Virus record (IMG/VR): IMGVR_UViG_2609460125_000009
Length of the DNA: 64,000 bases
DNA from: a virus
Lineage: Duplodnaviria > Heunggongvirae > Uroviricota > Caudoviricetes
Direction: 5' to 3' (one strand)
Shown: piece after piece, positions 2,850 through 62,267 of the stretch
Layout: each line of letters opens with the position of its first letter
Position numbering within the stretch: the first letter of the stretch is position 1
The notes under the pieces: model-generated
Told to the model about the DNA's origin: nothing
The model's input: the letters and a program-made list of their open reading frames with translations, nothing else
The model's database searches: none
Translations under genes and position numbers: made by a program

Positions 2850-3720
2850 TATAAGAATCCGTTGATCGCCACTACTCTTCTTCCATACCTGCAATCACAC
2901 CTTTAAATATCAATAAGTTATAGTTGTTTATACAATCAAGAAAACAACTGAATAACAGATCAACGAAACATCAACGCTTTCACCCGATTTGGTCTAAAAA
3001 ATTGACGTATTCACACATCACTTCTTATACCCGTAATTCTACGCAGCAGACAGCGCCACAGCGTCCAATTTTCACCACAGACGACCCAACACACTACCAA
3101 CAAAAACACACGCTCAAAATCGCTCCCGTTGCGTTACACAACCATATAAACAACTTATTTTCAGGCATAACAAAACAACTAAATAACACACATGCCATTC
3201 CCCAAAACAACCAACCTCTTTATGGCAGGCTACCGAAAAGACCCACCTCTTCTCCCCAGGCTACCGGACAACCAACCTAACTTTCACAGGCAATCCGAAA
3301 ACATTCATACGCGCGATACCCACGACACGCCATTACCCAAACAGCGAAGAAACACCAGAATCACTGAAACCCCAACGAAGCCTGTAACCGCAAGGTTTCT
3401 CTCAATCCCAAAAGACACGAAACATAACAATCACGGGAAACGCCATTACCCAATACACGAATAACTACAAAAGCCTTTCACACACTCCAGACAAACAACT
3501 CAAACACAATAACGAAAGGAATCGCCCACCTGCCATTACTCCATACACGGAGAAGAACAATCACCAAAACGACGAGAACACCCCATAGAAGAACCACCGC
3601 AAAACGAACGAAACCACATACACCGACAGAGAGAACAACACACCCAATTCACAAACAGAAATAGTCGCCGCATAGAACGTTCTGGAAGGGGTGAGCATTA
3701 ACGCCTATAGAGAGGTTGAG
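2850..3720 (+). other. strongly A+C-skewed non-coding region with degenerate direct repeats
   Basis: G and T are scarce on the given strand; no ORF >=60 aa on the opposite strand; repeated GCCATTACCCAA and CAGGCTACCG units. Confidence 0.6.
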
Positions 3721-3787
3721 ACAGATAAAACACGAAGAAAACACAACATGTATAGCGAACAAGACAGGTATGTATAAGTGGGGAGGG

Positions 3788-3811
3788 AAGGAGGGGTGTC
3801 GCCTCCTTTTT
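3788..3811 (+). terminator. terminator-like hairpin
   Basis: AAGGAGG…CCTCCTT stem followed by TTTTT. Confidence 0.4.
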
Positions 3812-3894
3812 CGTATTTATTCAACTCCTGATTTTATCCCCCGTAACACCCCTACGGTCAGCCTTCGATCCATACAGGGAAAAGGTTGCATCCC

Positions 3895-4015
3895 GCTACA
3901 GAAACGGCTGGGTTGCCTTCGGGGAACGGCTGGAGGTTTTCAGGGAAACGGTCGAGTTGCCTGTGTGGATTTCGGGAAAAGGCTCGATGCCGGTTCAGGA
4001 ACGGTGGAGTACCGG
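3895..4015. repeat. iteron-like direct repeats (GGGAAACGGC-type, ~21 bp period)
   Basis: Five tandem units: AGAAACGGCTGG, GGGAACGGCTGG, GGGAAACGGTCG, GGGAAAAGGCTCG, AGGAACGGTGG. Confidence 0.6.
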
Positions 4016-5289: not shown

Positions 5290-5685
5290 ATGACCGTTAA
5301 ACGCGAAAAACTGACAGTTGATGTTTACTATGCCTCTGAAACCGCCGAAGGTAAGAATGTGGCAAAAATCACCGTTGTTACGTACAACACCGAAACTGGT
5401 GCCGAAGTACAGGCCAGTACGATCGTGCGTAAAGGTGATGCCTCCGGCGGCGAGTACGCGACTCAATACCAGTCCATTCTCGATGCAACTGACCCGCTGC
5501 TGCTGAAAATCGAGAACTACTTCCGCCAGGTTGATGAAGAGGTGTTTGAAACCATGATGAATATGGTTAACACCGTATTCGCCTCCAGCCTGAACACCAG
5601 CACCACCTGGATTGGCCAGTACGGTCTGCGCATTACCTCTGGCATTCCTGCCGACACCTTAATCCCTGAAAGCGTATTCGCTTAA
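5290..5685 (+). CDS. hypothetical protein
   Basis: ORF with GGAGAG RBS. Confidence 0.45.
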   Translation: MTVKREKLTVDVYYASETAEGKNVAKITVVTYNTETGAEVQASTIVRKGDASGGEYATQYQSILDATDPLLLKIENYFRQVDEEVFETMMNMVNTVFASSLNTSTTWIGQYGLRITSGIPADTLIPESVFA

Positions 5686-5695
5686 TCCTCTTTAA

Positions 5696-5722
5696 ATGGC
5701 GCGTAAACCGCGCCATTTTATT
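5696..5722 (+). terminator. rho-independent terminator
   Basis: ATGGCGCG…CGCGCCAT stem followed by TTTTATT. Confidence 0.65.
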
Positions 5723-5731
5723 AAGCCCGAT

Positions 5732-5746
5732 AACAATTTGTTTTCT
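5732..5746. promoter_or_regulatory. motif family 1 site AACAATTTGTTTTC
   Basis: Palindrome upstream of the 5803 ORF. Confidence 0.45.
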
Positions 5747-5802
5747 GCCTTATCTGATTTGTGAAAATGATTTCACTGAAGCAACTTAATAAGGAAACCA
5801 TC

Positions 5803-6177
5803 ATGGGACTTGATATCTATATCGAGACACAGCCTAAAAACGATCTGAATAACGAGGCATCCAGAAAGCGGGTTGCTTACTTCCGTAAGTTCAATGCGCT
5901 CGTTGGGTGGATGGAGCGCAACGTAGGTGAAGTCGAAAATTGTGAGCTTTTAGAATTAACGATGAATGACATTTGTTTTCTGAAGGCTCATTTGATGCAC
6001 ATAAACGAAAGTAATTGCGAAGAGTACTTGCCTACCCGGGAAGGTTTTTTCTTCGGCAGTCAGGAGTACGATGAAGGTTACTGGCATGATGTGGGGGAGT
6101 TGAAAGAGCTTGTGGAAGATCTGATTAAGAACCACGACTTTCACAATAACAGACTGACCTTCTGCGCCTGGTGGTAA
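5803..6177 (+). CDS. hypothetical early protein
   Basis: ORF with AAGGAAACC RBS; the longer frame from 5761 would start at GTG. Confidence 0.45.
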   Translation: MGLDIYIETQPKNDLNNEASRKRVAYFRKFNALVGWMERNVGEVENCELLELTMNDICFLKAHLMHINESNCEEYLPTREGFFFGSQEYDEGYWHDVGELKELVEDLIKNHDFHNNRLTFCAWW

Positions 6178-6179
6178 AT

Positions 6180-6323
6180 ATGGGCGATTTCAAGAAACGC
6201 CTGAAGGAGAGAGCCGAGATGGTCAGAAAGCGAAACGCCTCTTCTGTCATCAGATACGCAAGGCAGTTTAGTCGCAACAACAAATCAGTTGAGGAAAAGA
6301 TCCTTAGCGTAATCGGGCGATAA
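6180..6323 (+). CDS. small basic hypothetical protein (47 aa)
   Basis: Short ORF starting 2 nt after the stop of the previous gene; not in the supplied track because <60 aa. Confidence 0.3.
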   Translation: MGDFKKRLKERAEMVRKRNASSVIRYARQFSRNNKSVEEKILSVIGR

Positions 6324-6330
6324 TTATTAA

Positions 6331-6350
6331 GGCCACCAGCATTGGTGGTC
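6331..6350 (+). terminator. terminator-like hairpin GGCCACCAGCATTGGTGGTC
   Basis: Stem-loop without a strong T-run; near-identical copy at 6800. Confidence 0.4.
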
Positions 6351-6478
6351 TTAAATGACTTTTAATAACCGAAGGTTAGTTTGAAACCTGGCTATCAACT
6401 TCCAGAACCTTTCTTGTGTATTCAGCCTGTATTAACTTCTTTTATGCCTTATCTACACTGCGATAATTACACCAACAA

Positions 6479-6493
6479 GAAAACAACATGTTT
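6479..6493. promoter_or_regulatory. motif family 1 site GAAAACAACATGTTT
   Basis: Preceded by the conserved CGATAATTACACCAACAA promoter-like block. Confidence 0.5.
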
Positions 6494-6506
6494 ACGCAGT
6501 GAGGAT

Positions 6507-6794
6507 ATGCTCATGACTGATTTCACCATTACCCCTAAAGCACAAAATGTATTCCTTGAATCATGGCTGGACTTGCCGGAAACAGAACAGCAAGAAATGG
6601 ATCATGTGGATTATGACGAGCAGGTAAGCACGCGATTCTTCCACTTTGAGGGATGCGTTTACGACATTGCCGACTTCATGCGAGATGACCGCTTCCCTGA
6701 ATGGCACGCAAGCTATCCACTAAACGCCTTTGCCATGCTGATGATCCGTGTGGATGATTCAGGGGATACCATCGACATCGGTCTGCTCCACTAA
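6507..6794 (+). CDS. hypothetical early protein (acidic)
   Basis: ORF with GAGGAT RBS; start at 6507 or 6513. Confidence 0.45.
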   Translation: MLMTDFTITPKAQNVFLESWLDLPETEQQEMDHVDYDEQVSTRFFHFEGCVYDIADFMRDDRFPEWHASYPLNAFAMLMIRVDDSGDTIDIGLLH

Positions 6795-6998: not shown

Positions 6999-7481
6999 AT
7001 GAATTTTATCGCTACTGTAAACGCACCCGCACATGGCAATATCGCTGTAACGTTCTCTGACATTGAAAAACGAGTACTTGGTGCATGGCGCGACAATGAG
7101 ACGGTAGAACTGTCAGCACAAGAAAAATGCATTATTGCACGCGACATCATTGGCAATCGTCGTTACTCGCGGGTATTTGAGAAAGCATATGTGGTAAATT
7201 CTGGATTCGGAACGTTCGTCTTTCCGGTGCGCTCCGGGCGATTCTGCCAGTCCAAGCTGATTGAGTTCGCTACGCAGATTTCTGTCTGGATTAAAACTCA
7301 ATCGTCGTTCAAATTTTCCGACGATGAAGCAGTATCGCAGGGGATGCGGATCGCCAACAATGCGATTAAATGCAAAAACATTACGTATACCGCTGGCGTT
7401 GATACATGGAAACTGTTTTGCGCTAACTTTATGCTGAATGTATACGCAAGCAACCGCATCCACATCCTTGATGGCGTGTAA
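6999..7481 (+). CDS. hypothetical protein
   Basis: 160-aa ORF with AAGGA RBS. Confidence 0.5.
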   Translation: MNFIATVNAPAHGNIAVTFSDIEKRVLGAWRDNETVELSAQEKCIIARDIIGNRRYSRVFEKAYVVNSGFGTFVFPVRSGRFCQSKLIEFATQISVWIKTQSSFKFSDDEAVSQGMRIANNAIKCKNITYTAGVDTWKLFCANFMLNVYASNRIHILDGV

Positions 7482-7494
7482 CTGAGAAGAGGGC

Positions 7495-7620
7495 CAGAAA
7501 CGGCCCTTTCTCTACAGCCACCAGCTGCCGCAGGGAAATTTTCAGAAACGGCGAGGAACGTATTCATGAGCCGACGGGAAACGGCCAGGATTTTTTCGGG
7601 AAACGGCTGCATTCGCCTTT
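7495..7620. repeat. second iteron-like array (AGAAACGGCC / GGGAAACGGC units)
   Basis: Four or more direct repeats of the same core as the 3895-4015 array. Confidence 0.55.
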
Positions 7621-7725
7621 ATATAGAAAAAACATCGGGAAGCTGGTGGAATCCAACCAGCGGTTGTCGGACAGGTGAGCGGGGAAAATCATGATGACTT
7701 TCGTCGCCTGAGACATCCAGATTTC

Positions 7726-7780
7726 TTTCGTAGCGTAATCACATATGTGATTAAGTGGTGTGATTATGTGAAAAATCACG
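7726..7780. promoter_or_regulatory. cluster of perfect palindromes (TAATCACATATGTGATTA; ATTATGTG-N12-CACATAAT)
   Basis: Inverted repeats in a convergent intergenic region. Confidence 0.4.
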
Positions 7781-8071
7781 CGCACATAATACGAGAGCGG
7801 ATACGGAACAAAACAAAATGCCGATCCGCGCCGACAATTAAACGCGGATCACATAGCAAGAATAAAAGCCAATGATTAACCATACACCATAACGCAATAT
7901 AACGCGATTTAAGCGCGTTAATGCGCTAAGTAATGGGTATGTACTGGTAAGGATATAAAAGCGCGTCTATGGCGTTATTTTGGCGCTTATTTTTATGTTG
8001 TTGGTGTGAGTCAAAGACAATAAAAAACGCGCTAATGATGGCGCGTTATGGTGGGAGTATTGGAAACGAAA

Positions 8072-8093
8072 AAAGCGCCCATAGTGGGCGCTC
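8072..8093 (-). terminator. hairpin AGCGCCCA-TAG-TGGGCGCT downstream of the 8098 gene
   Basis: Perfect 8-bp stem; identical copy at 8568. Confidence 0.45.
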
Positions 8094-8097
8094 GATT

Positions 8098-8328
8098 TTA
8101 TTTATGTAAACTGATTTCAAATCCCATTTCTACAAACGCTTTTAACATTAAAAATATATCAGCGTCATTCACGTCTGCTTTTTTTCGCTCCTGGTCGCTC
8201 AATAAGTCAATTTTGCGCGTCGTTTCATCTATAAGCTCGACTGCGCGCCCAGCGTAACCAGCGATCCCAGCGATGCGATTAACATAATATTCGTTATGGA
8301 CGTTAACGCCAGCGATAAGAACAAACAT
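8098..8328 (-). CDS. hypothetical protein (76 aa)
   Basis: ORF in an AT-rich operon. Confidence 0.4.
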   Translation of the reverse strand: MFVLIAGVNVHNEYYVNRIAGIAGYAGRAVELIDETTRKIDLLSDQERKKADVNDADIFLMLKAFVEMGFEISLHK

Positions 8329-8348
8329 GATTAAGCTCCTTAAAAAAA

Positions 8349-8552
8349 TTAAATAGAATTTTGAAGTTTTCCGATTAATGCGCTTAAACGTAAGTATTCA
8401 CGTTTGCGCTTGCAATCTCGCTTGCTGTTAAGCAAATCAGAAAACGTAAAATTTAATTGGTCGCGTTGCGCGATTAAATCATCGATTAATTCCAGTTTAT
8501 AAGCGCGATACTTTGCGCGATATTCCGCGCGGATCTTGTCATAGCTGACCAT
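8349..8552 (-). CDS. hypothetical basic protein (67 aa)
   Basis: Start moved to the internal ATG with an AAAGGAG RBS; the longer track ORF would run through the 8568 hairpin. Confidence 0.4.
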   Translation of the reverse strand: MVSYDKIRAEYRAKYRAYKLELIDDLIAQRDQLNFTFSDLLNSKRDCKRKREYLRLSALIGKLQNSI

Positions 8553-8567
8553 TTTCAAAGCTCCTTT

Positions 8568-8589
8568 AAAGCGCCCATAGTGGGCGCTT
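8568..8589 (-). terminator. hairpin identical to the 8072 copy
   Basis: AAAGCGCCCATAGTGGGCGCTT between the 8601 gene stop and the next RBS. Confidence 0.45.
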
Positions 8590-8600
8590 GATTCCATTAA

Positions 8601-9251
8601 TTACGCTTTGAAAGCATCAGCTAAATAATTGTAGAAATCATTTTTAATGAAGCGATATTGCTGAGTACCAGCTTTCGCACTCCCAGCTCCTTTGACTTTT
8701 TCAACAAGTCCAAGACGTTCGCAAAGATTGATCAACTGGTTGGCTTGAGTATAGCCAGCGTCCAATTTAATTTCACACGCTTTTTTAGCTTCATTCATTA
8801 AATCGAAAACAGCGCCATTGGTGAACGTGTCGATCTCGTCGTTAATCATATCGATTAAAGCGAATACACGAGATCCTGACATATCAGCGATGGAATAAAC
8901 GCATTTACCAGATTTAATTGATTTAACCAGATAAACCAGTTTTTCCAGAGAATAACTATTAGTCATTGCATCACGGAAAAATACTTCTGGCGCTTGTTTG
9001 CTTGCTTTAATCGCATAGTAGAAAACAGAGCATAATTTTTCGTCTTCTACTGCGTTTACGACGTTGTTGATGAAGTAAGCAAGTTTAGTGGTCGCAGCTT
9101 GCATATTTGCTTTGTCTGCTTTAGTGTGCGTACCATTTTTATAATGTTCGTTATATGTTTGAGTTGCCAGATCTGCTTTTTCGCGCAGCTCGTCGGATAC
9201 AATAGATGCAGCTTCAATGATGGACTTTTTAGAAATGATAATGTTAGCCAT
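8601..9251 (-). CDS. hypothetical protein (216 aa), no recognisable motif
   Basis: First gene of an AT-rich operon; long AT-rich promoter region upstream (9252-9500). Confidence 0.5.
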   Translation of the reverse strand: MANIIISKKSIIEAASIVSDELREKADLATQTYNEHYKNGTHTKADKANMQAATTKLAYFINNVVNAVEDEKLCSVFYYAIKASKQAPEVFFRDAMTNSYSLEKLVYLVKSIKSGKCVYSIADMSGSRVFALIDMINDEIDTFTNGAVFDLMNEAKKACEIKLDAGYTQANQLINLCERLGLVEKVKGAGSAKAGTQQYRFIKNDFYNYLADAFKA

Positions 9252-9502
9252 GATAATTTTTCCTTATGTAAATTTAAAATTTATTGTCGTTAGCGTCTTC
9301 GCTTTCGACGAGTTCAATTATCGATACGCGAAAAAAGATTGCAAGTGTTTTTTTTAAATTTTTTGCAGGGATGAAAGTCCTAGAAATAAAAGCGAGATCG
9401 TCGAAGGTGTTCCCTAAATAAATAATCAATTCGGGCTTTTAACCTTATATATATTTAGGTTATTTGATTTGTAGATATAAAGAAGTGATGTGAAAAATAA
9501 TA

Positions 9503-9524
9503 ACCGGACTTAGCCGGTTATTAA
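9503..9524 (-). terminator. hairpin AATAACCGG…CCGGTTATT
   Basis: Stem-loop downstream of the 9535 gene. Confidence 0.45.
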
Positions 9525-9534
9525 CCTTATAGAT

Positions 9535-9843
9535 TTATTGAACAGACTCTACAGCCTTACGATTGGTGTCAAATAGCGCATCAACGAACTGTGCCGATGA
9601 CTCGCTAGATTCGCAATCCAACATTGCCCGTTCTTCATTTGCCACTTTCTTACACAGTTCCACATTCTCACCTATCGCTTTTCCTGCTTTTACGGCTGCC
9701 GAAAATTGATACATGCAAACTGATACATTCTGAGACGTTGAGCACACGTCATTCATCAGCGACTGAATGACAGGCTTATAGTCCATTGCATTTGCCGCAA
9801 CTGAGCAAAGTAAAAATAATGGTGGTAACAATATCGATTTCAT
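9535..9843 (-). CDS. secreted cysteine-rich small protein
   Basis: N-terminal hydrophobic signal-like segment (MKSILLPPLFLLCSVAANA); six Cys residues. Confidence 0.5.
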   Translation of the reverse strand: MKSILLPPLFLLCSVAANAMDYKPVIQSLMNDVCSTSQNVSVCMYQFSAAVKAGKAIGENVELCKKVANEERAMLDCESSESSAQFVDALFDTNRKAVESVQ

Positions 9844-9846
9844 AAC

Positions 9847-10371
9847 TCAAAAAGGCAAAATTCGTTCAACCCAATCGAACAAAACAACTATTTTTCTACC
9901 GTTCTCGACACGTAGTGTAACCTGACAAGCATCTGCGCCTGCTGACACCCCCTCAATTTCACGGCCATCCGCCATGTACACCCTTATAGATTTGTTTGCT
10001 TTGTAGGCTTGGTTGCAAATTGCAAAAAAATCGCGGCGTGATGGCCGATTATCGACATAATCAGGGTGAACTGTTAATCGACCTTTGAAATCGTGAGCGA
10101 TACTGTCAACCACACCTGATTCAATTGTACTAATGCGTTCAAGTGGGAGCCTTATACGATTTTCTTTGTCAAAAGGGGCTGGGCAAAGGTCAACTTTGTT
10201 GCGAGATGGCATGAGGCCATAAACGTACATGCAAAACGCCTGACCATCTTCGAGAGTGACCCTTACAGGAATTTGTTCTCTGCGCCAGAACATCAGTAGT
10301 TTTTCAACGTTAGTGTAATCTCGCGGCAAGAGTTCAGCTTGGATACCGTAGGTAATATCTTTGGTTGTCAT
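9847..10371 (-). CDS. hypothetical protein
   Basis: Start moved to the internal ATG (MTTKDITYG…) to avoid overlap with the upstream lipoprotein gene. Confidence 0.4.
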   Translation of the reverse strand: MTTKDITYGIQAELLPRDYTNVEKLLMFWRREQIPVRVTLEDGQAFCMYVYGLMPSRNKVDLCPAPFDKENRIRLPLERISTIESGVVDSIAHDFKGRLTVHPDYVDNRPSRRDFFAICNQAYKANKSIRVYMADGREIEGVSAGADACQVTLRVENGRKIVVLFDWVERILPF

Positions 10372-10375
10372 GTCA

Positions 10376-10798
10376 TCACAGAGTTGTTGGCAGAATGTCG
10401 ATGTTACCAGAATTGCTGGTGAACACCCTGAACGCTTTTGTGTCTCCATTCTTCAGAGTCGTTTCTCGCTCTTGACGAGCGGGGTTTAGAGCACATAAAC
10501 CTGCACCTTCAAGAGATGCACCCACAATTAATTCTCCGGCATTTAAATGGAAAGTCGCTTTTTCGCCTGTAGCCAGTTTTGCGACAGTTTCGCCATTGAT
10601 GAAAATGGAAGCATCACATCCAGCTCCTACAAAACCTGTGTCTCTCATTACCACCAACGTAGCTGGCGCTGCGCTTTGATACTTGAACACTTTGGCCTGC
10701 GGTGCTGGTTTGGCGTCATGGATTGATATTGGACGTGATTGGCACGCGGTAAGCATCAACACTGGTAACGTTAGTAGAGGGAGAAGCGAGTATTTCAT
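10376..10798 (-). CDS. putative lipoprotein
   Basis: Signal peptide with lipobox (…VLMLTAC); start at MKYSLL. Confidence 0.5.
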   Translation of the reverse strand: MKYSLLPLLTLPVLMLTACQSRPISIHDAKPAPQAKVFKYQSAAPATLVVMRDTGFVGAGCDASIFINGETVAKLATGEKATFHLNAGELIVGASLEGAGLCALNPARQERETTLKNGDTKAFRVFTSNSGNIDILPTTL

Positions 10799-10866
10799 GT
10801 TAGTTTTAGAACAGAAAGTGAACAGTATGGGAGACTTCATCTTTGTCTCCCTAATTGATAGCGTGA

Positions 10867-11145
10867 TTATTTTAATCTGCTTAATAGCGTTTCGAGATCT
10901 TCCTTTGTCATATTAGAGTTCTCATAGATACGCATGATTTTCTCACGAGTCTTAGCGGAAGCCCCGACAGAAGATATAACCTTGTCAAAGTCGGCCATTG
11001 TCAATTGTTCCAGAATGGTATTAATGACTTCAGCCTTAGACATTTTGATATTTTTTTCTTTTAGTTTCACTTGAAACTTTCCAAGTTTGTCATTGGCCTT
11101 ATCAGACAATGCTACCTGACAGTAAGTTGTTTTCTTTTCACTCAT
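10867..11145 (-). CDS. hypothetical small protein (92 aa)
   Basis: ORF immediately downstream of the helicase gene. Confidence 0.4.
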   Translation of the reverse strand: MSEKKTTYCQVALSDKANDKLGKFQVKLKEKNIKMSKAEVINTILEQLTMADFDKVISSVGASAKTREKIMRIYENSNMTKEDLETLLSRLK

Positions 11146-11147
11146 AA

Positions 11148-12707
11148 CTAATCTCGTTTCAGAACTCCAAAATCGAATGCTCCATCAATAGGCAATACAC
11201 CTTCTGCAAAGCCAGGTGTGGTGTCGATGATGTGTTTTCGCTCATAAGAGTGAGACAACAGGTATTTGTTGCTAATGTCAATGAAATCAGTGATAAAACA
11301 CACGTTTGCCTGATTTTTTTTGGCTCGTAAGCCACGACCGACACGTTGTCTCATTTCAACTTCTGCTTTCCCACCACCAGCAAGAATGACCGCACCAACG
11401 CTTGGCACATCAACACCAACATCCAGAATAGTCGAGCCTATTAAAACATCTATTTCACCAGACGCTAAACTGTTCAGCTTTGCTTGCCTTGTCGTCTGGT
11501 TAGATTCCCCATAGATGAAATCAACTCTAAGACCTGACTCCTTCATCATCTCCATCAGGATTTGCCCGTGGCGTTTAAGACGAACCAGAGTCATGCAGTT
11601 GAGTGAATGTTGCTTATAAAGCAATGCCTCGCGCACTATGGCCTCGTTACGTCCCAAATTATACACGATCCCCAACTGATAAGCCTTTTGGTAGGCGGTG
11701 CTCATACCAACTCTAAAATTGAGATGTTTGTTGGCAAGTTCGGCCTTGATTCTGGCCTCGTCTGGCTTGTAGGCAACTTTATGATAAAGGAAGTACGGCT
11801 TTGCCAGAATGCCTCGATCAATCAGGTACTTTTCTGTGACTTTAATTTCAATTCGCCCGGCCACCGCCATCAGGCGCATGTTGGCTTCCGTCGAATCCTT
11901 CATGAACGGCGTGGCTGTAAGCGCCAGACGATAGTCTGCGTTCACACATAATCTGGCGATGTCATAGAAATTTGAGCCTGAAGACTCATGCGCCTCTTCC
12001 AGAATAAGAAGAGAGACACTTGAAAGGAAGCGTTTCACCAACTCCCGACGTTTGAGGTGGTAGCTTTTCTTATCTGGTGTTGCATCGCGTGGTGGTTCTT
12101 CGAGGAAACTTGCAAGAGTTTGAACTGTAGCGACGTTGATATGTCGTGATACCTGGAACTCACCCGAGCCAATGACTCCAACCTTTTGGTCTTTTAACCA
12201 CGGTTCGCCATTTTTGGCGCGGTAGTCGATGGATCTCTGGAAGTTTTCGGCCATTTGAAACATCAGAACAGAGCGGGTTGTTAAAAATAATGTCATTCGA
12301 CCGATACGTGCAGCTGCTTTGCAGGCAACATTAGATTTCCCGCCACCAGTAGCGATCTGCGCAATCATCATTCCCTCTCGAACCAGTGTTTCCACAGTCT
12401 GATCCTGATACGCATAATCAGGATTGTATGGGAATGGGTTAACCGCCGGATTTGGTTTACCAAGCGCCGGGGCTTTGTCTTTGCGGATATGAACACATTT
12501 GATGCCCGCCTTGTTCAAGTTCGCCGCTACAGGCTTGGCAAAGCCAGCAGGGAACGAGTTTTTACTCCAGTTGAACATCGTGCTTGTGCCCTTCCAGTCG
12601 CCAGTCTCGACTTCGTAGCTCAACATTTGCTGCACCAGTTGCTTTACCTTGTCATCTGCGCCAGAAATAAGCGCATTTACTGCGTTAGATACAATCCGAA
12701 CAGTCAT
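11148..12707 (-). CDS. superfamily-2 DEAD/DEAH-box helicase
   Basis: Motif I ATGGGKS, motif II LILEEAHE, motif III TATP, motif VI QRVGRGLR. Confidence 0.75.
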   Translation of the reverse strand: MTVRIVSNAVNALISGADDKVKQLVQQMLSYEVETGDWKGTSTMFNWSKNSFPAGFAKPVAANLNKAGIKCVHIRKDKAPALGKPNPAVNPFPYNPDYAYQDQTVETLVREGMMIAQIATGGGKSNVACKAAARIGRMTLFLTTRSVLMFQMAENFQRSIDYRAKNGEPWLKDQKVGVIGSGEFQVSRHINVATVQTLASFLEEPPRDATPDKKSYHLKRRELVKRFLSSVSLLILEEAHESSGSNFYDIARLCVNADYRLALTATPFMKDSTEANMRLMAVAGRIEIKVTEKYLIDRGILAKPYFLYHKVAYKPDEARIKAELANKHLNFRVGMSTAYQKAYQLGIVYNLGRNEAIVREALLYKQHSLNCMTLVRLKRHGQILMEMMKESGLRVDFIYGESNQTTRQAKLNSLASGEIDVLIGSTILDVGVDVPSVGAVILAGGGKAEVEMRQRVGRGLRAKKNQANVCFITDFIDISNKYLLSHSYERKHIIDTTPGFAEGVLPIDGAFDFGVLKRD

Positions 12708-12752
12708 AAACCTCTTTCCTTAGTGCCTTTTGTATGTTATTTGGCTATTATA

Positions 12753-12772
12753 ATAAGTAAGTGATTACTTAG
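12753..12772. promoter_or_regulatory. motif family 2 palindrome ATAAGTAAGTGATTACTTAG in a divergent promoter region
   Basis: Inverted repeat between the helicase operon (-) and the ParB-like operon (+). Confidence 0.45.
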
Positions 12773-12789
12773 TGGATTGTAGCAATAAA

Positions 12790-13470
12790 ATGGATGTAAA
12801 AATCACGATTTTGCAGGTTGATGTTGCCAACCTTCGCCCGAATACCTGGAACACCAATTCGGTTGGTGCGCAGAATTTTGAAAAACTGAAAGGTTCTATC
12901 GAAAAATTGGGCTTTTTTAAGCCAATTTTGGCTCGTGAACTTGAAGATGGATTTTTTGAAATCCTCGGCGGCGAACATCGCTGGCGTGCTGCTATTGAGC
13001 AAGGAATTTCAACGGTTCCGGTGCTTTCTGTGGGCAAAATTAGCGATGTCGTAGCTAAACAGATGTCACTGGTGGACAACGAGCGATACGGTGAAGACGA
13101 CCAAATCGCATTGCAACGCTTCATTGAAGAAATTCAGTCAGAACTTGACTATCAACTGTCTGAAATCGCCCCGTATGACGACGAAATCTCGATGGTTTTA
13201 GCAAAAGAGGCGGCAATCGACCTTGAAGCACTGGAGGCGTTGTCTCGTGGTAGTGATGAGCCTGTCGATACCGACAAACGAGAGAAAACCGAACGTGTGG
13301 GTGCGGAACATCAGACCATGCGCTTCAAAGTAACTTTCGATGCGTCAGATCGTGTTGCAGAAACCATAAAAAACATCATCAAAGAGCAGGCTATTAACAC
13401 CGGTAATGAAATGGAGAACGCTGGTGAGGCTCTGGTGTGGCTGGTCGACTACTACAAGGAGCGTATGTAA
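12790..13470 (+). CDS. ParB/Srx-fold nuclease-like domain protein 1
   Basis: ParB N-terminal-like motif (…FEILGGEHRWRAA…); start could be 12772. Confidence 0.6.
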   Translation: MDVKITILQVDVANLRPNTWNTNSVGAQNFEKLKGSIEKLGFFKPILARELEDGFFEILGGEHRWRAAIEQGISTVPVLSVGKISDVVAKQMSLVDNERYGEDDQIALQRFIEEIQSELDYQLSEIAPYDDEISMVLAKEAAIDLEALEALSRGSDEPVDTDKREKTERVGAEHQTMRFKVTFDASDRVAETIKNIIKEQAINTGNEMENAGEALVWLVDYYKERM

Positions 13471-14138
13471 TGACCAAAAAGTTTGAAATCGTATATCGCG
13501 ACCCGGCAGATCTTATTCCCTATGAGATGAATGCCAAAAAGCATGATGAACAGCAGATCCGAGATCTGGCCGCAGCCATTAAAAAGCGCGGATTTGACCA
13601 GCCAATTACGGTCGATAAGAACGACGTAATTATTACTGGCCACGGCCGCCGTGAGGCTGCAATTTTTGCTGGACTTGAGCGCGTACCGGTTATTGTTCGC
13701 GATGATCTCAGTGATGACGAGGTTCGTGCGAAGCGCCTTGAAGATAACCGACTTGCCAGCATTGATTACGATGCAATTAAGCTACAGAAAGAGCTTGAGT
13801 CGCTTGTTCTGGACGATATCGAGGTTTTCGGCTTTGAAGAGCGTGAGTTGAATGTTCTCGTTGGCAGCATGACAGAAGAAATGGACACCGACTCGCTAGT
13901 TATCGATCTTGGCGAAGAAACTAAACGACAGAAGGATGAACACACCGAGATCAGTCGTGAAGTTGCAGCGGAAGAAGTACGTGTTGTCGACGTATTGGGC
14001 TTTAAAACGCTTCCTGCTGGCTCTGCCATTGTTGTTGGTGATTTGCTTGCCCACATGGAAGAAATGACGGGAGAAAGCGGGGTAGACGCATTTGTGGCAT
14101 ATGCGGAGAAGATCTCTTCCGGGGAGATGGCTGCATGA
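13470..14138 (+). CDS. ParB/Srx-fold nuclease-like domain protein 2
   Basis: ParB-like motif (…VIITGHGRREAA…); start overlaps the upstream stop (TAATG). Confidence 0.6.
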   Translation: MTKKFEIVYRDPADLIPYEMNAKKHDEQQIRDLAAAIKKRGFDQPITVDKNDVIITGHGRREAAIFAGLERVPVIVRDDLSDDEVRAKRLEDNRLASIDYDAIKLQKELESLVLDDIEVFGFEERELNVLVGSMTEEMDTDSLVIDLGEETKRQKDEHTEISREVAAEEVRVVDVLGFKTLPAGSAIVVGDLLAHMEEMTGESGVDAFVAYAEKISSGEMAA

Positions 14139-14800
14139 GCAAATACATCATCAACGTATCGTTTCAGACTCGCGTAAATAAAACCACGCGCACGTTGGAA
14201 ATCGCTGAGTCGTTCGGGCTTGGCCTGGACGAAAAAGAGTGGACGCTTTACGACAATCTGGAGCTGGAAGTGAAGCAGGGCGATGTGGTGTACATCACCG
14301 GCCAATCCGGTTCCGGCAAATCCGTTGTGCTGCGCGAGTTGCAACGACAGATGAAGGATGAAGGGCTGTCTGTAGCCTCCATCGATGATTTTACCTTCGA
14401 TAATGAGGTTAACGTCATCGATCAGTTGGGCAAAACGACCAGCGATGCGCTTGGGTTGTTATCTATGGCTGGTCTGAACGATGCATATCTGTTTGTTCGC
14501 AAGCCTTCTGAAATGTCAGACGGTCAGAAATATCGTCTCAAGATTGCCAAATTGATTGAGTCAGGCGCTAAAGTGTGGGCTGCTGACGAGTTCGGTGCTG
14601 TTCTAGACCGTGTAACCGCTCAGGTTGTGGCATCTAACCTCCAGCGTGCCGCTCGAAAGGTTGGTGCGACGGTAATGGTGGCGACGACTCACGAAGACCT
14701 GAAGAACGCGCTGCGCCCGGATATGCAGATCACCAAGCACTACAAAGAACGCGTGAAGGTGGAATATCACAATGGTAGTCATGATGAGGTTCATTTATGA
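14135..14800 (+). CDS. stand-alone ABC-type ATPase domain protein
   Basis: Walker A GQSGSGKS, ABC-signature-like MSDGQKYRL, Walker B AADEFG; start overlaps the upstream stop. Confidence 0.6.
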   Translation: MSKYIINVSFQTRVNKTTRTLEIAESFGLGLDEKEWTLYDNLELEVKQGDVVYITGQSGSGKSVVLRELQRQMKDEGLSVASIDDFTFDNEVNVIDQLGKTTSDALGLLSMAGLNDAYLFVRKPSEMSDGQKYRLKIAKLIESGAKVWAADEFGAVLDRVTAQVVASNLQRAARKVGATVMVATTHEDLKNALRPDMQITKHYKERVKVEYHNGSHDEVHL

Positions 14801-15687
14801 CGGACATCATCATTAAACGCTACCGCCCTGAAGAGTTTCCGCGTCATCTGGACTTTCTGGAGCGAATGACTGTCACAAAGGGAACTGTAGAGGACTGGCA
14901 CGCTCTTAAGTCGCTTCACTACAAAACAGACGGCAAACCTTTCGCGCCAACTTACTATCGCTGCGAACTTGATGACCGTCTGGTGGGCGTCGTGGTTATG
15001 GCTTACCCGAAACTACTGCTGGCACCTCGCCACCGCATGTTTCCTAAGTTGAAACCAACCACTAATACCACCGTGGCTAACCAGTACTGGGGTCGGTACG
15101 TGAATAACAACTTTGCGGTGATCAGTCGCTCAGTTGTGGATACTCAGTATCGTGGCGTAGGCGTCTCTTATCGAATGATTAACCTGGTTAGCAGGATGCA
15201 TGACCGGCCAATCATTGAGATCCAGTCCTCGATGAGCAAATACAATCCCTTCGCCATGAAAGCAGGGTTTAAGTTCATCCGCCCTGAGCGACCGAAGAGC
15301 TATGAAAGTGCACTGCGTGTATTCCAGCGCCATTTCCGTTCCGACCCGGGTGATAACGAGGCGATCGTCAAAGAGTTGTTCGCAATGAGCGAGTCTCGTC
15401 GTCGCCGTGCACTGCGTGATCTGGTGGCGGACTACCACAAGAACAGTTCCCTGGCAAAAGCTGGGCGGAATCGTGGCACGACGATTCAGGACATTGCCGA
15501 CAGTCTGGTGGACGAGGCCAGCATTGTGAAGCTGCTCAAGGACATTCACAACCTGAGCTTTACGTCTCCGTTGTATGGTGTGTACCGAAACCCTGACTTT
15601 GGCCGTCGACTGCCTGACACGCTGCCACTGCTGGCATTCGACAAACAACCTTTGGATAAACCGTTAGAAATTGCTTTACCGGCATAA
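14797..15687 (+). CDS. hypothetical protein with GNAT-like acyl-CoA binding motif
   Basis: Q-x-x-G-x-G motif (VVDTQYRGVGVSYRMINLV) after a hydrophobic strand; translationally coupled to the ATPase gene. Confidence 0.45.
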   Translation: MTDIIIKRYRPEEFPRHLDFLERMTVTKGTVEDWHALKSLHYKTDGKPFAPTYYRCELDDRLVGVVVMAYPKLLLAPRHRMFPKLKPTTNTTVANQYWGRYVNNNFAVISRSVVDTQYRGVGVSYRMINLVSRMHDRPIIEIQSSMSKYNPFAMKAGFKFIRPERPKSYESALRVFQRHFRSDPGDNEAIVKELFAMSESRRRRALRDLVADYHKNSSLAKAGRNRGTTIQDIADSLVDEASIVKLLKDIHNLSFTSPLYGVYRNPDFGRRLPDTLPLLAFDKQPLDKPLEIALPA

Positions 15688-15696
15688 GGATTTGCC

Positions 15697-15963
15697 ATGA
15701 CGTTAACCGATAAACAAAAGGACATCATCAAAACGCTCAATCTCGGTTATGAGCGAGGTCATCTACTTGACCTGGACGAATTGCTTGAAGTTTTGCCGTA
15801 CAAGACAACTAAGCAAAGTATCCAGTTCTCAATTCGCGCTCTGATAAAAAAGGGGCTGGTGGAGAAAGGGCATACGCGCCAACGCAGTGACAATCGCTAT
15901 CACCGCCGAACTCTTGGGTTAACCACTTTAGGTCGAGCCAAAGCGAAGTTACTGGTGATGTAA
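15697..15963 (+). CDS. small DNA-binding protein (winged-helix-like)
   Basis: 88-aa basic ORF; HTH call is by pattern only. Confidence 0.4.
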   Translation: MTLTDKQKDIIKTLNLGYERGHLLDLDELLEVLPYKTTKQSIQFSIRALIKKGLVEKGHTRQRSDNRYHRRTLGLTTLGRAKAKLLVM

Positions 15964-15987
15964 TCGGTCTGGGAGCTTATTTAAAGA

Positions 15988-16042
15988 CCTGCTTCTGTAT
16001 ATATAAATAATAAGTAACTTATTAAATATATACGGAAGCAGG
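15988..16042. repeat. 55-bp hairpin element, copy 1 (CCTGCTTCTGTATATATAAATAATAAGTAACTTATTAAATATATACGGAAGCAGG)
   Basis: Imperfect palindrome with a motif-family-2-like centre; identical copy at 48434-48488. Confidence 0.7.
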
Positions 16043-16104
16043 CTTCGTAAGACATGCCAGACCTAATTAAACACCCCAGAAAACAAGTTGGTTAGCAGAT
16101 GCAG

Positions 16105-16119
16105 TAAACAAGTTGTTTT
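16105..16119. promoter_or_regulatory. motif family 1 site TAAACAAGTTGTTTT (degenerate second copy at 16078-16093)
   Basis: Upstream of the terminase small subunit gene; followed by a GAGCGC…GCGCTC hairpin. Confidence 0.5.
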
Positions 16120-16158
16120 AGAGCGCATGGACGCGCTCTGTGTGTTTTAGAGGGATCT

Positions 16159-16791
16159 ATGACGGTCGAAAAAGACGAGGTAAAAACTCGCCTGACACCA
16201 GCGGAGTGGGCCGAAGCTGAAGCCAAATGGACGTCAGGCGAATATACACTCTCAAAGCTGGAGGAAGAGTACGGCATTCGTCGTGAAACACTCTCCAGAC
16301 ATTTCAAAAAGCGAGGATTAGAGAAAGGCGCGGACTCTGTTGGGAAGATGGTTCGTGAGTCTCTTAAATCTGACGCAGAGCTTCGCGCTAAAGCCCGTGC
16401 GGAAAAGATAGAAGAACGTCGTACACGTTATGACGGCTGGGCGTATGCGTTGGGGCAGATGGTGATGGTCGAAGTCACTACGGCCAAACGTGAGGGTAAG
16501 CCTTTAGGGGCGATTGAGGATTCTCTCAAGAGCTTACAGAGAGCCAGTAATACCCTTGCAAAATGCTTTGAAGTTTCGTCCAAAGCATTGGGCATGGATC
16601 ATGCGGAAAATGACGAGGAAGAAATTCCGAACCTGGTATTTGGTGAGCTTACGCCTTCCCAGGTGGCGAAATTACGTCAGGAAGACGACGAGCCTGAAAT
16701 CATCGATGACGAATTGCTTGAGACGTTGGAAGAAGAAGCTCTAAGCGAATTTGATGCGACAGATGATGGAAGTGAAGGGGAGGACGAATAA
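16159..16791 (+). CDS. terminase small subunit (putative)
   Basis: Position immediately upstream of terminase large subunit; acidic C-terminus. Confidence 0.55.
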   Translation: MTVEKDEVKTRLTPAEWAEAEAKWTSGEYTLSKLEEEYGIRRETLSRHFKKRGLEKGADSVGKMVRESLKSDAELRAKARAEKIEERRTRYDGWAYALGQMVMVEVTTAKREGKPLGAIEDSLKSLQRASNTLAKCFEVSSKALGMDHAENDEEEIPNLVFGELTPSQVAKLRQEDDEPEIIDDELLETLEEEALSEFDATDDGSEGEDE

Positions 16792-18047
16792 TGGCAATCC
16801 CGTCCTCGCTCAGTCTTGTGCAACTGCATTCTGGACAGATGAAAGTCTTCCAGTCTCCGCATCGATTTAAAGTTGTTTGTGCTGGTCGACGCTGGGGAAA
16901 ATCCCGGTTGTCGATCTCCACTATTATTCGTGCGGCGGCAAAGGAAAAAAAGCAAAGGGTCTGGTATGTCGCTCCTACTTACCAGATGGCTCGCCAGATT
17001 TTGTGGGACGATCTACAGGAAGTTCTGCCTCGTAAGTGGGTTAGGAAAAAGAACGACACCACGATGACAATCGTGTTGAAGAACGGTTCGGAGATCGCCC
17101 TCAAAGGTGCTGATAAGCCTGACACTCTGCGCGGCGTAGCGTTGCATTTTGTAGTGCTTGATGAATTTCAGGATATGAAGGCTGACACTTGGTACAAGGT
17201 GTTACGACCTACTCTTTCATCGACACGCGGCGGTGCACTGATCATTGGTACGCCAAAAGGCTTCTCGGAATTTCACAAACTGTGGACTATAGGCCAGAAC
17301 GTAGAGCTGCAAAGAAAGGGACAGTGGAAGAGCTGGCAGTTTGTAACTGCCGATTCTCCGTTTGTACCTACGGCGGAAATTGAAGCTGCTAAGAACGATA
17401 TGGACCCCAAATCGTTCGCTCAGGAGTACCTGGCCAGCTTTGAGAACATGTCCGGGCGCGTTTACTACCCGTTCGATCGTAACGTGCATGTAAAACCGCT
17501 TCAGTTCAACCCTCGGTTACCTATATGGGTAGGGCAGGACTTCAACATTGACCCGATGTCTTCCGTAATTTTGCAACCTCAGCCAAATGGTGAGCTATGG
17601 GCAATTGATGAATTGGTGCTCTTTTCCTCTAACACGGCAGAGGTTTGTGATGAGCTTGAGAGACGCTTCTGGCGCTGGAAATCACAGATAACGATATTTC
17701 CAGATCCGGCAGGTGCTTATCGCCAACATGCTCGCGGGGAGTCTGACGTCGACATATTCAAAGAGAAGGGATTCTTACGTGTCGATTATTCGAAAAAGCA
17801 CCCGCCAATTGCGGATCGTGTTAATGCTGTTAACCGAATGCTGATGACCGCATCTGGAGATATCCGGCTGTATATCGATCCGAAGTGCAAGCATTTGATT
17901 GATTCACTGGAAAAAGTCATCTACAAGCCTGGAACACGAGATATGGATAAGACAGGTGGCATTGAGCATAGTGCAGACGCATTGGGCTATCCAGTACATC
18001 GTAGGTATCCAGTCAAAAACCGTGTTATTCTTGGTGGTTCTCGATAG
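16791..18047 (+). CDS. terminase large subunit
   Basis: Walker A-like VCAGRRWGKS, Walker B VVLDEF; gene order. Confidence 0.8.
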   Translation: MAIPSSLSLVQLHSGQMKVFQSPHRFKVVCAGRRWGKSRLSISTIIRAAAKEKKQRVWYVAPTYQMARQILWDDLQEVLPRKWVRKKNDTTMTIVLKNGSEIALKGADKPDTLRGVALHFVVLDEFQDMKADTWYKVLRPTLSSTRGGALIIGTPKGFSEFHKLWTIGQNVELQRKGQWKSWQFVTADSPFVPTAEIEAAKNDMDPKSFAQEYLASFENMSGRVYYPFDRNVHVKPLQFNPRLPIWVGQDFNIDPMSSVILQPQPNGELWAIDELVLFSSNTAEVCDELERRFWRWKSQITIFPDPAGAYRQHARGESDVDIFKEKGFLRVDYSKKHPPIADRVNAVNRMLMTASGDIRLYIDPKCKHLIDSLEKVIYKPGTRDMDKTGGIEHSADALGYPVHRRYPVKNRVILGGSR

Positions 18048-50729: not shown

Positions 50730-50810
50730 AAAATAAGCGTGGAGAACACCTCCACGCTTGATTCATTGGTGAAACAACTTTTCTTTTGCCAAACCACAAA
50801 AGAAAAACAC

Positions 50811-51992: not shown

Positions 51993-52005
51993 CAAGTGCC
52001 GCTAA

Positions 52006-52026
52006 AATAAGTAGATGATTACTTAT
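52006..52026. promoter_or_regulatory. motif family 2 site ATAAGTAGATGATTACTTATC
   Basis: Inverted repeat upstream of the 52068 ORF. Confidence 0.45.
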
Positions 52027-52067
52027 CTTTCTGTAAGAATACTTTCATCTGTTAGCTAGGAGTTGGT

Positions 52068-52850: not shown

Positions 52851-52905
52851 TCTCTCCGCGCGTCGTTTTTTACGCAAATAACGATAGGTAAGTACAAGAT
52901 TATTT

Positions 52906-53388
52906 ATGGCGGTAGTTGTGAAAGCTGATTTGTCAAAAATCCCTTCTATTTCAGGAAATAACGGTTATTCACTTCGTTGTGAGGAAGTAAAGATAAACGG
53001 TGAGTCGGCATATTGCAGCTATTCCGTTTGCCAGCACACCATTCTTGCCTTCAAAGAAAACCGTCTTCCTCGAACTTCTTTCCAGTCGTGCGCAACCGCT
53101 ATTAAAGCAGGCAAATGCAAGGCGTTAAAAATGATGGTTGAAGAGATTCGTAAAGGAGAATCTCTGTATTTCGAAGATATGACCGCGCTCATTAAGGAGG
53201 TTGAAGAACGGAATAAACAAGCCAGAACTATAAAACGAAAACGTGACAGTGTAACGATTAATAGCATGGTTAAGAAGAGCACCACATCACAAACAGCGAT
53301 CACTGACGTGTATGCGGCGTTGCTTGAAGAAACAACAAAAGAAACACATGAGCAAATCGATCAACATATGGAGGCAAAACAACAATGA
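52906..53388 (+). CDS. hypothetical protein
   Basis: 160-aa ORF; overlaps the ligase start. Confidence 0.45.
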   Translation: MAVVVKADLSKIPSISGNNGYSLRCEEVKINGESAYCSYSVCQHTILAFKENRLPRTSFQSCATAIKAGKCKALKMMVEEIRKGESLYFEDMTALIKEVEERNKQARTIKRKRDSVTINSMVKKSTTSQTAITDVYAALLEETTKETHEQIDQHMEAKQQ

Positions 53389-62172: not shown

Positions 62173-62187
62173 ACAAAACAGCCTTAA

Positions 62188-62210: not shown

Positions 62211-62267
62211 ATAATGATATATTTATATAAGAAGTTGAACGCTCATTAGAAAACAAAGGAAAAACGC

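Follow-up and report, generated by a model that had tools for sequence, protein, structure and literature searches.

Our results indicate that the five co-oriented genes studied here are a mosaic stretch of an SSU5/pHCM2/pMT1-type phage-plasmid, and not one system that joins a helicase to envelope proteins; we put the probability of this reading at about 0.7. In such a mosaic, the backbone would consist of a helicase gene with its coupled small ORF and of a gene for a FljA-like protein, and the cargo would consist of genes for a lipoprotein and a secreted 102-aa protein (Table 1). The genes lie on the minus strand of a viral DNA of 64,000 nucleotides, and this whole stretch is referred to below as the window.

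The window is itself a phage-plasmid of this type. It showed 98.7% identity to Escherichia phage CMS-2020a and 82% identity to SSU5, and near-identity and synteny with backbone genes of SSU5, pHCM2 or pMT1, together with a plasmid location, place it in the SSU5 supergroup. This supergroup of phage-plasmids includes Salmonella phage SSU5, S. Typhi pHCM2, Y. pestis pMT1 and CMS-2020a (PMC7969092). The same region was found on plasmids in 243 of 5,426 complete E. coli genomes, as well as in pMT1 and SSU5, and the E. coli matches were plasmid-borne in every case (300 of 300, with 0 chromosomal). The locus is already known as a common phage-plasmid region that has been deposited many times, and there is nothing new in the locus itself.

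Table 1. Coordinates of genes and transcription signals in and around the cluster.
Feature	Position in window	Strand	Description
Intrinsic-terminator-like hairpin	9498..9523	-	TAATAACCGG-CTAAGT-CCGGTTATTA then TTTTT; 10 bp; directly after last gene
Secreted protein, 102 aa	9535..9843	-	phrog_9536; cassette; signal peptide, 4 Cys
FljA-family protein, 174 aa	9847..10371	-	PF03614; backbone gene; two tandem Hfq/Sm-like domains modelled
Outer-membrane-type lipoprotein, 154 aa	10376..10840	-	phrog_890; moron/cargo; lipobox LTAC, Gln at +2
Weak sigma-70-like site	10866..10895	-	TCGAAA-18-AATAAT; 9/12 matches; ahead of lipoprotein gene
92-aa protein	10867..11145	-	phrog_1466; backbone; 2 nt between helicase stop and its start
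SF2 DNA helicase, 519 aa	11148..12707	-	UvsW/XPB-like; backbone gene; Pfam ResIII, DEAD, Helicase_C
TATAAT (-10-like), conserved	12748..12753	-	34 nt upstream of helicase ATG

Cluster organization and comparison with relatives

A first-pass annotation had proposed a co-oriented minus-strand operon at 9535-12707, and all five of its ORFs were found there, with junctions of 2, 26, 4 and 3 nt between consecutive genes. Upstream of the helicase, the 64-bp divergent intergenic region that it shares with a ParB-like operon contains a TATAAT element, and an alignment of nine relatives keeps ...ACTTACTTA(C/T)TATAAT... plus a AAGGAAAGAGG ribosome-binding site. We regard this element as a putative helicase promoter; no good -35 hexamer was found upstream of the helicase. 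Promoter scans of the region gave no matches above chance, including the weak sigma-70-like site ahead of the lipoprotein gene. No strong terminator was detected within the cluster, in agreement with the first-pass annotation, and an Rfam scan of 7000-16500 at E<=1 returned two chance-level matches only. Because the cargo has the same orientation as the backbone genes and no terminator intervenes, all five genes of this window are probably co-transcribed from the helicase promoter.

Comparison with relatives showed that this arrangement is not a fixed one. CMS-2020a has all five genes in the same order, and pMT1 and SSU5 have the helicase, the 92-aa ORF, the lipoprotein and the FljA-like gene in the same order but without the 102-aa cassette. 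Furthermore, in SSU5 a strong hairpin terminator separates the 92-aa ORF from the lipoprotein gene and stands where the window has the weak sigma-70-like site. The hairpin that follows the last gene of the window is found directly after the FljA-like stop codon in Cyrano and SSU5 and, in pJN2-26, after an inserted small ORF. The full five-gene arrangement was present in 95 of the 243 E. coli carrier genomes, and most of the 243 have only the helicase and 92-aa part in common. pJN2-26 and Cyrano have their lipoprotein gene at the corresponding site on the opposite strand.

These observations bear on the suggestion that all five genes form one new system, such as a defence or exclusion machine, in which the helicase would be the motor in the cytoplasm and the lipoprotein and the secreted protein would sense or act at the envelope. 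The tight packing of five co-oriented genes, the single terminator in the window and the weak matches of the helicase to PbeA and Dnd-restriction models are what such a machine might present. However, close relatives whose helicase is 99.6% identical lack the envelope genes, have others in their place or carry them inverted, a terminator lies inside the SSU5 cluster, most E. coli carriers share just the part described above, and a PADLOC search gave no meaningful match for the other four proteins: only the 92-aa ORF matched any model, at chance level. Comparative genomics has already largely refuted the single machine, which we consider very improbable.

The first-pass annotation had itself allowed for two functional units, and the inverted lipoprotein genes, the internal terminator of SSU5 and the partial sharing among E. 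coli carriers support more than one, since conservation across relatives is limited to the helicase with its small ORF and the FljA-like gene. The coupling of a cytoplasmic helicase to envelope proteins, which had appeared unusual, is explained by insertion of cargo into a backbone operon. In KpPF25, a relative without cargo, the FljA-like gene lies next to the helicase and small ORF, and given this adjacency there may be a functional link between the helicase and the predicted RNA-binding protein.

The helicase and its small ORF

Membership of the helicase in SF2 is indicated by its motifs ATGGGKS (residues 119-125), LEEAHE (236-241), TATP (264-267) and RQRVGRGLR (453-461), which were invariant in 32 homologues, by Pfam DEAD, ResIII and Helicase_C matches over their cut-offs, and by two RecA-like domains in an AF2 model (pLDDT 89.7). 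The protein had been called a DEAH-type helicase with all core motifs visible; the motifs are all present, but motif II reads EEAH, which is DExH-like and not DEAH. It matched phrog_16 with E=4.9e-93. The top PDB fold match was T4 UvsW (2oca, E=8.6e-23), with XPB next, and the TM-score to UvsW was a modest 0.42 because the domains are placed differently relative to each other. Like T4 UvsW and archaeal-eukaryotic XPB, the window helicase has an SF2 core after an N-terminal beta-rich domain, but its sequence identity to UvsW is only ~17%. Pfam UvsW_N (PF21241) is carried by homologues at ~49% identity and had no match in the window helicase itself, and the XPB repair helicase model NF045503 gave 50.2 bits against a curated cut-off of 610.

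Among phages, its nearest relatives are a Rhizobium phage 'RNA-DNA and DNA-DNA helicase' and the genes called 'DNA helicase A' in large phages of Staphylococcus, Bacillus, Listeria and Enterococcus. A role as replication helicase, one of the possibilities raised initially, was not borne out: the top fold match is UvsW, and a separate DnaB-like helicase, primase and ligase are encoded at 49389-54707, ~37 kb from the cluster. The protein is probably an accessory UvsW/XPB-like SF2 helicase and not the replicative helicase of the element. By analogy with T4 UvsW, it would most likely remodel branched DNA or R-loops with ATP, in the recombination-dependent replication or repair of the element.

The other initial possibility was an anti-restriction helicase, and a restriction or anti-restriction type (PbeA/DndF-H-like or type I/III Res-like) would replace the role in recombination or repair. 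The Pfam ResIII domain and the matches to PADLOC PbeA (E=6e-23, 79 bits) and NCBIfam dnd_restrict_1 (59.6 bits) point in this direction. However, the PbeA match covers the helicase core only and is well below family level, and the dnd_restrict_1 score is ten-fold short of its cut-off of 600 and gives no family assignment; all of the defence-model matches are far under the level at which a family could be assigned. The helicase also lacks a nuclease domain, and no Dnd/Pbe partner genes are present. It is a backbone gene with 90-99% identity among relatives, while the defence cargo varies, and both its nearest phage relatives and its fold match to UvsW argue against a helicase of the restriction or anti-restriction type. 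We therefore consider the restriction type improbable and retain the UvsW-like reading. The first-pass annotation had named a helicase of a standard replication family, with separate promoters for the downstream genes, as the outcome that would count against it, and this is largely what we found: the protein falls within a standard family of phage helicases, and in relatives the genes behind it would be transcribed separately.

The 92-aa ORF was found in SSU5-like elements only, always directly downstream of the helicase, to which it would be translationally coupled. The two genes would be transcribed divergently from a conserved ParB-ParB-ABC ATPase-296-aa protein-wHTH-terminase block, and Morganella, Xenorhabdus and one environmental contig retain this divergent arrangement of the helicase and small ORF with the ParB-like genes. 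Pfam, searched at E<=5 for the small ORFs, gave no usable match to the 92-aa protein, and its profile matched neither ribbon-helix-helix proteins nor UvsW.1, nor any other PDB sequence; from the sequence pattern, its N-terminus could possibly be a ribbon-helix-helix. In T4, a small ORF, uvsW.1, comes after uvsW, a parallel that we take as a lead only.

The lipoprotein, the secreted protein and their insertion sites

Relatives differ in the genes that separate the small ORF from the FljA-like gene, among them opposite-strand lipoproteins and GmrSD_N plus AAA ATPase genes. KpPF25 has no cargo in this hotspot, and its locus consists only of the helicase, the small ORF, the FljA-like gene and a small secreted ORF. 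The window has a lipoprotein gene in the hotspot, as the first-pass annotation had recognized: its translation reads ...LPVLMLTAC|QSR, which fits the lipobox pattern [LVI][ASTVI][GAS]C, and its homologues are annotated as lipoproteins. With the start used in homologues, at 10798, the protein has 140 aa. It matched phrog_890 with E=1.7e-51, and the window and SSU5 proteins scored 18.1-20.2 bits with DUF2846 (PF11008), under the gathering cut-off of 34.3.

Homologues of the lipoprotein occupy moron positions in the tail region of lambdoid phages (mEp390 gp17) and are also found in temperate phages of Pseudomonas and Vibrio. The mEp390 gp17 and window proteins are 38.5% identical, and both genes are insertions within otherwise conserved phage modules. 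Few elements besides the window, CMS-2020a, SSU5 and pMT1 have the lipoprotein at the present site. It is a member of a mobile moron family. Putative functional analogues among moron lipoproteins are T5 Llp, phi80/N15 Cor and lambda Bor; none of the searches run gave a sequence relation to Llp, Cor or Bor.

The secreted Cys-rich protein was likewise correctly recognized, with a signal peptide that ends ...VAANA|MDY and a mature part with 4 Cys. Compared with Cyrano, SSU5 and PhiR41_1, the window has 311 bp of inserted DNA here, a cassette with this gene that lies after the FljA-like stop codon and ahead of the conserved terminator. In the phage collection, the 102-aa family was limited to CMS-2020a and one Klebsiella phage, and the same slot in pJN2-26 and KpPF25 has weakly related small secreted ORFs with 4 Cys. 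The product would be a small periplasmic 4-Cys cargo protein. Most likely, the lipoprotein and the 102-aa protein alter the envelope of the lysogen, and a role in superinfection exclusion, for example, is plausible.

The FljA-like protein

A 175-aa protein had been listed between the two envelope proteins; the gene is present, with a product of 174 aa, but the protein had gone unrecognized as a member of the PF03614 family, repressor of phase-1 flagellin. The match to PF03614 (Flag1_repress) had E=1.7e-82 and 275.8 bits against a gathering threshold of 24, and it covered profile positions 1-170 of 170. A 200-aa reading with a start at 10449 overlaps the lipoprotein gene and was rejected because all homologues begin MT..DITYG. 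The protein is alignable over its full length with flagellin-linked FljA at 34-39% identity, with sizes of 172-178 aa, and the motifs DI(T/S)YG..AE..PR.Y, R(R/K)DFF.IC and FDWV.RI are common to both. The pHCM2 homologue is annotated 'repressor of fliC'. Salmonella FljA, including that of pBSSB1-type linear plasmids, belongs to the same family and is expected to have the same fold of two Sm/Hfq-like domains. Hfq/Sm-like RNA chaperones, in contrast, are homohexamers of single domains; the FljA-like protein is modelled with two such domains fused in one chain, at 13-25% identity. We predict that it is an RNA-binding posttranscriptional regulator, and its homology to FljA suggests that it most likely blocks translation by binding to an mRNA leader.

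The genetic context of the FljA-like gene differs from that of fljA. Flagellin was immediately upstream in all six of the flagellin-linked fljA loci that were examined, whether chromosomal or on linear plasmids, and no flagellin gene was found at this locus, nor at the corresponding position in the phage-plasmid relatives examined, where the order is helicase, small ORF, cargo (when present), FljA-like gene and a gene for a 216-aa protein. Intact, full-length copies of the gene were found on plasmids of Klebsiella (345) and Yersinia (62), and its other hosts include E. coli, Salmonella, Enterobacter and Citrobacter; the PLSDB carriers number 835. Purifying selection acts on it, with dN/dS values of 0.08-0.27 (0.11 for pMT1 versus pJN2-26, between the Yersinia and Klebsiella hosts). 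Furthermore, alleles of 67-78% identity have been exchanged between E. coli backbones that are otherwise ~99% identical. Identity within the phage-plasmid lineage was 21-37%, versus 33-40% to flagellin-linked FljA, which makes this lineage no less diverse than its split from flagellin-linked FljA. In a neighbour-joining tree, flagellin-linked FljA nested inside the phage-plasmid clade only under midpoint rooting, and this placement is not established.

Two readings of its role were weighed. The first is that the protein is a true flagellin repressor, which would bind the host fliC leader and block FliC so that lysogens are non-flagellate, with the envelope genes as part of the same conversion package; if so, lysogens would be protected from flagellum-dependent phages or immune recognition. 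The full-length homology and shared motifs, the PF03614 score well over cut-off, the pHCM2 annotation and the many flagellate hosts among the carriers are in keeping with this reading. However, the gene has no adjoining flagellin gene in any of the phage-plasmids examined, and it is intact and under purifying selection in Klebsiella and Yersinia plasmids; Klebsiella pneumoniae and Y. pestis are non-motile, and S. Typhi CT18 with pHCM2 is still serotyped H:d. The exchange of diverged alleles is hard to explain with one conserved host leader as the target. Finally, when the window was searched with the E. coli fliC leader and early coding sequence, no conserved fliC-leader-like sequence was found in the element. 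We consider a true flagellin repressor doubtful.

A single exact 15-nt match to the fliC leader/early coding sequence did occur, at 11030-11016 in the 92-aa gene. It follows from the peptide AEVINT and was absent from 13 of 13 relatives checked, and it was therefore treated as chance.

The second reading, which we advance tentatively, is that the protein is a backbone tandem-Sm regulator of the element's own transcripts, for example in lysis-lysogeny or copy-number control, and that FljA was recruited from such an element. Diverged allele classes would then be exchanged much like immunity specificities. Because Klebsiella and Y. pestis plasmids keep the gene intact, fliC is probably not its only target, and a transcript of the element itself appears more likely as target than host fliC alone.

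A literature search on a FljA gene in SSU5/pHCM2-type phage-plasmids found, in the library covered, no paper that addresses the FljA-like gene. The role of its product is the one lead from an otherwise ordinary locus. The locus also marks a cargo hotspot just behind the helicase and small ORF, in which relatives have envelope-protein genes and GmrSD-type defence genes; it would be useful to mine for lysogenic-conversion and defence genes in the clinically widespread SSU5-type elements. The FljA-family protein, Hfq-like and predicted to bind RNA, is universal in SSU5-type elements, also where the host is a non-motile pathogen such as Klebsiella or Y. pestis, and it is unstudied. The Hin invertase is related to phage invertases. 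In parallel, if the FljA-like protein regulates the element's own transcripts, the phase-variation repressor FljA of Salmonella would be a recruit from a phage-plasmid of this kind.

Layout of the cluster and identity of the element

The five minus-strand ORFs listed by the first-pass annotation were all found exactly where it had placed them. The helicase gene and the 92-aa ORF are joined by TAGttATG, the lipoprotein and FljA-like genes by TGAtgacATG, and the FljA-like gene and the 102-aa ORF by TGAgttATG; the 92-aa ORF is separated from the lipoprotein gene by 26 nt that contain a GGGAGA ribosome-binding site. In the window, a single transcript with its end at 9498 probably covers all five genes.

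Features of the window and of related elements
Feature	Position	Strand	Remarks
Helicase gene	12707-11148	-	519 aa
92-aa ORF	11145-10867	-	
15-nt exact match to E. coli fliC coding start, AAGTCATTAATACCA	11016-11030	-	inside 92-aa gene; E ~0.005
Lipoprotein gene	10840-10376	-	lipobox LTAC
FljA-like 174-aa ORF	10371-9847	-	
102-aa ORF	9843-9535	-	signal peptide ending VAANA; four Cys in mature part
Terminator hairpin	9523-9498	-	10 bp then TTTTT; directly past last stop codon
Promoter-like sites of the 216/82/76-aa genes	9344-9317, 9278-9250		
216-, 82-, 76-aa genes	8098-9251	-	past terminator; conserved; phrog_1513, phrog_6145, phrog_1585
Hairpin AAAGCGCCCATAGTGGGCGCT, two copies	8570-8594, 8072-8092		past 216-aa gene; past 76-aa gene
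Divergent operon	12772-15963	+	two ParB_N-only proteins, ABC-type ATPase, 296-aa protein, 88-aa wHTH protein
Terminase genes	16159-18047		adjoin divergent operon
DnaB-like helicase and primase	49389-51992		
Odd composition	3001-4000		GC skew -0.23, AT skew +0.34
Odd composition	39001-40000		GC content 0.59, AT skew +0.33; inside 1385-aa ORF at 38504-42661
Large ORFs	60064-63503	+	PHROG labels: cobaltochelatase CobT-like, 'porphyrin biosynthesis'/ATPase
180-217-aa family, directly 3' of small ORF	L001 (Cyrano) 5357-5956; L003 (PhiR41_1) 6186-6752; L012 (Klebsiella plasmid) 2267-2806; L007 (Morganella) 8067-8705; L008 (Xenorhabdus) 8046-8699		
GmrSD_N protein and AAA_15/AAA_21 ATPase	L007 9124-11299		hotspot past helicase/small ORF

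The region shares 98.7% identity with Escherichia phage CMS-2020a, 97% with phages Cyrano and PhiR41_1 across shared parts and 82% with Salmonella phage SSU5, and terminase, portal, tail, DnaB-like helicase, primase and ligase genes are present elsewhere in the window. Because of these identities and this gene content, the window is an SSU5/pHCM2/pMT1-type phage-plasmid, a group described previously (PMC7969092). Among 5,426 complete E. coli genomes, 243 carried the region, always plasmid-borne and never chromosomal; the whole five-gene arrangement was found in 95 of these carriers, and most others share the helicase and 92-aa part only. The same order (helicase, 92-aa ORF, 140-aa lipoprotein, 175-aa ORF) occurs in Y. 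pestis pMT1. The observation thus holds, but the locus is an ordinary one that databases already contain.

A probable accessory helicase

Helicase motifs I, II, III and VI (ATGGGKS, LEEAHE, TATP and RQRVGRGLR) are present, as the first-pass annotation had noticed, and are invariant in 32 homologues, but motif II reads EEAH and not the DEAH that it had named. The profile searches that it proposed gave matches to phrog_16 ('DNA helicase', E=4.9e-93) and to Pfam ResIII, DEAD and Helicase_C. Matches to PDB sequences (XPB, Rad25, UvsW) were weak, and scores against NCBIfam and PADLOC models (XPB, Dnd restriction, PbeA) were far under family cut-offs. An AlphaFold model made with 32 homologues as input (pLDDT 89.7) matched T4 UvsW best (E=8.6e-23) and XPB next, and the Pfam UvsW_N domain is present in homologues that are ~49% identical. 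Among phage relatives are a Rhizobium phage 'RNA-DNA and DNA-DNA helicase' (40% identity) and the helicase genes of large phages of Staphylococcus, Bacillus, Listeria and Enterococcus. Because the element encodes its own DnaB-like helicase and primase, the suggested replication helicase was set aside, and the protein is probably an accessory UvsW/XPB-like helicase. Its likely role in recombination-dependent replication or repair of the element would be to remodel branched DNA or R-loops.

Backbone genes and cargo

Across relatives, the helicase always adjoins a small ORF of 91-125 aa, and the pair always diverges from a block encoding two ParB_N proteins, an ABC ATPase, a 296-aa protein, a small wHTH protein and the terminase. 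Pair and block, head-to-head, are kept in Morganella, Xenorhabdus and an environmental 99-kb contig; the FljA-like and 216-aa genes are also kept in most relatives. The segment from the small ORF to the FljA-like gene differs: it holds a co-oriented lipoprotein gene in the window, SSU5, pMT1 and a few others, an opposite-strand lipoprotein gene of the same family in pJN2-26, an unrelated opposite-strand lipoprotein gene with other genes in Cyrano and PhiR41_1, three other genes in a Klebsiella plasmid, GmrSD_N and AAA-ATPase genes in the Morganella relative, and nothing in KpPF25. A strong terminator hairpin, which the window lacks, separates the 92-aa ORF from the lipoprotein gene in SSU5. 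In both Cyrano and SSU5, terminator TAATAACCGGCTAAGYCCGGTTATTA lies directly past the FljA-like stop codon; the window has a 311-bp cassette (the 102-aa protein) between the two, and weakly related small secreted 4-Cys ORFs fill its slot in two Klebsiella elements.

From this variable interval, the terminators and the inserted cassette, it follows that the adjacency of helicase and envelope proteins, which had been regarded as an unusual coupling, arose when cargo genes entered a backbone unit and is not a designed coupling. The accompanying idea of two functional units was right, in that the helicase/small ORF pair and the FljA-like gene are conserved and the genes between them vary. We read the cluster, with a probability of about 0.7, as a backbone helicase unit plus a backbone FljA-family RNA-binding regulator and two envelope cargo genes. 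The lipoprotein belongs to phrog_890, a family that lambdoid phages carry as an insertion in their tail modules (mEp390 gp17) and that temperate phages of Pseudomonas and Vibrio also have; the envelope proteins may well act in exclusion or surface modification.

The GmrSD_N and ATPase genes of the Morganella relative occupy the site of the window's lipoprotein and are probably cargo for defence against phages. The 180-217-aa family is absent from the window, SSU5 and pMT1. In the divergent operon, the 296-aa protein has a weak GNAT match, and PADLOC gave weak matches only. The two AAAGCGCCCATAGTGGGCGCT copies look like duplicated terminators, and for a protein of only 67-82 aa the phrog_6145 label 'MIT family metal ion transporter' seems doubtful.

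The FljA-family protein

The whole length of the 174-aa protein is covered by a match to Pfam PF03614 (repressor of phase-1 flagellin; 275.8 bits), an identity that the first-pass annotation missed. The protein is 34% identical, again over its full length, to the product of a fljA gene that a linear Salmonella plasmid carries directly 3' of a flagellin gene. Since the phage-plasmid protein outscores a genuine flagellin-linked fljA (213.8 bits), phage-plasmid sequences seem to dominate the Pfam model. The protein is encoded, almost always at full length, by 835 PLSDB plasmids (Klebsiella 345, Escherichia 229, Enterobacter 92, Yersinia 62, Salmonella 60). When one genome per species was scanned, the gene occurred in only two contexts: phage-plasmids, or directly downstream of a flagellin gene (Salmonella diarizonae, Atlantibacter, Franconibacter, Citrobacter; 34-39% identity).

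Homology to FljA and conserved motifs keep alive the possibility that the phage-plasmid protein is itself a flagellin repressor, which we nevertheless consider rather unlikely. Klebsiella and Y. pestis are non-motile hosts. The gene has no partner flagellin gene, is kept intact in both hosts and is under purifying selection between them (dN/dS 0.11; overall range 0.08-0.27), all of which argues against fliC as the only target. So does the swapping of deeply diverged alleles between near-identical backbones: between the window and PhiR41_1, dS is 1.37 and dN 0.24 for the FljA-like gene, and dS is 0.10 for both the helicase and 216-aa genes. Furthermore, no conserved fliC-leader-like sequence was found in the element. 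The match AAGTCATTAATACCA to the fliC start was treated as coincidence because it is conserved in no relative.

As an FljA-family regulator, the protein would probably block translation of the mRNA that it binds. None of the papers searched deals with this gene in phage-plasmids, and its pHCM2 homologue has only the annotation 'repressor of fliC'. The single lead that deserves pursuit is this unstudied, predicted tandem-Sm protein of the FljA family, which is universal in SSU5-type phage-plasmids.
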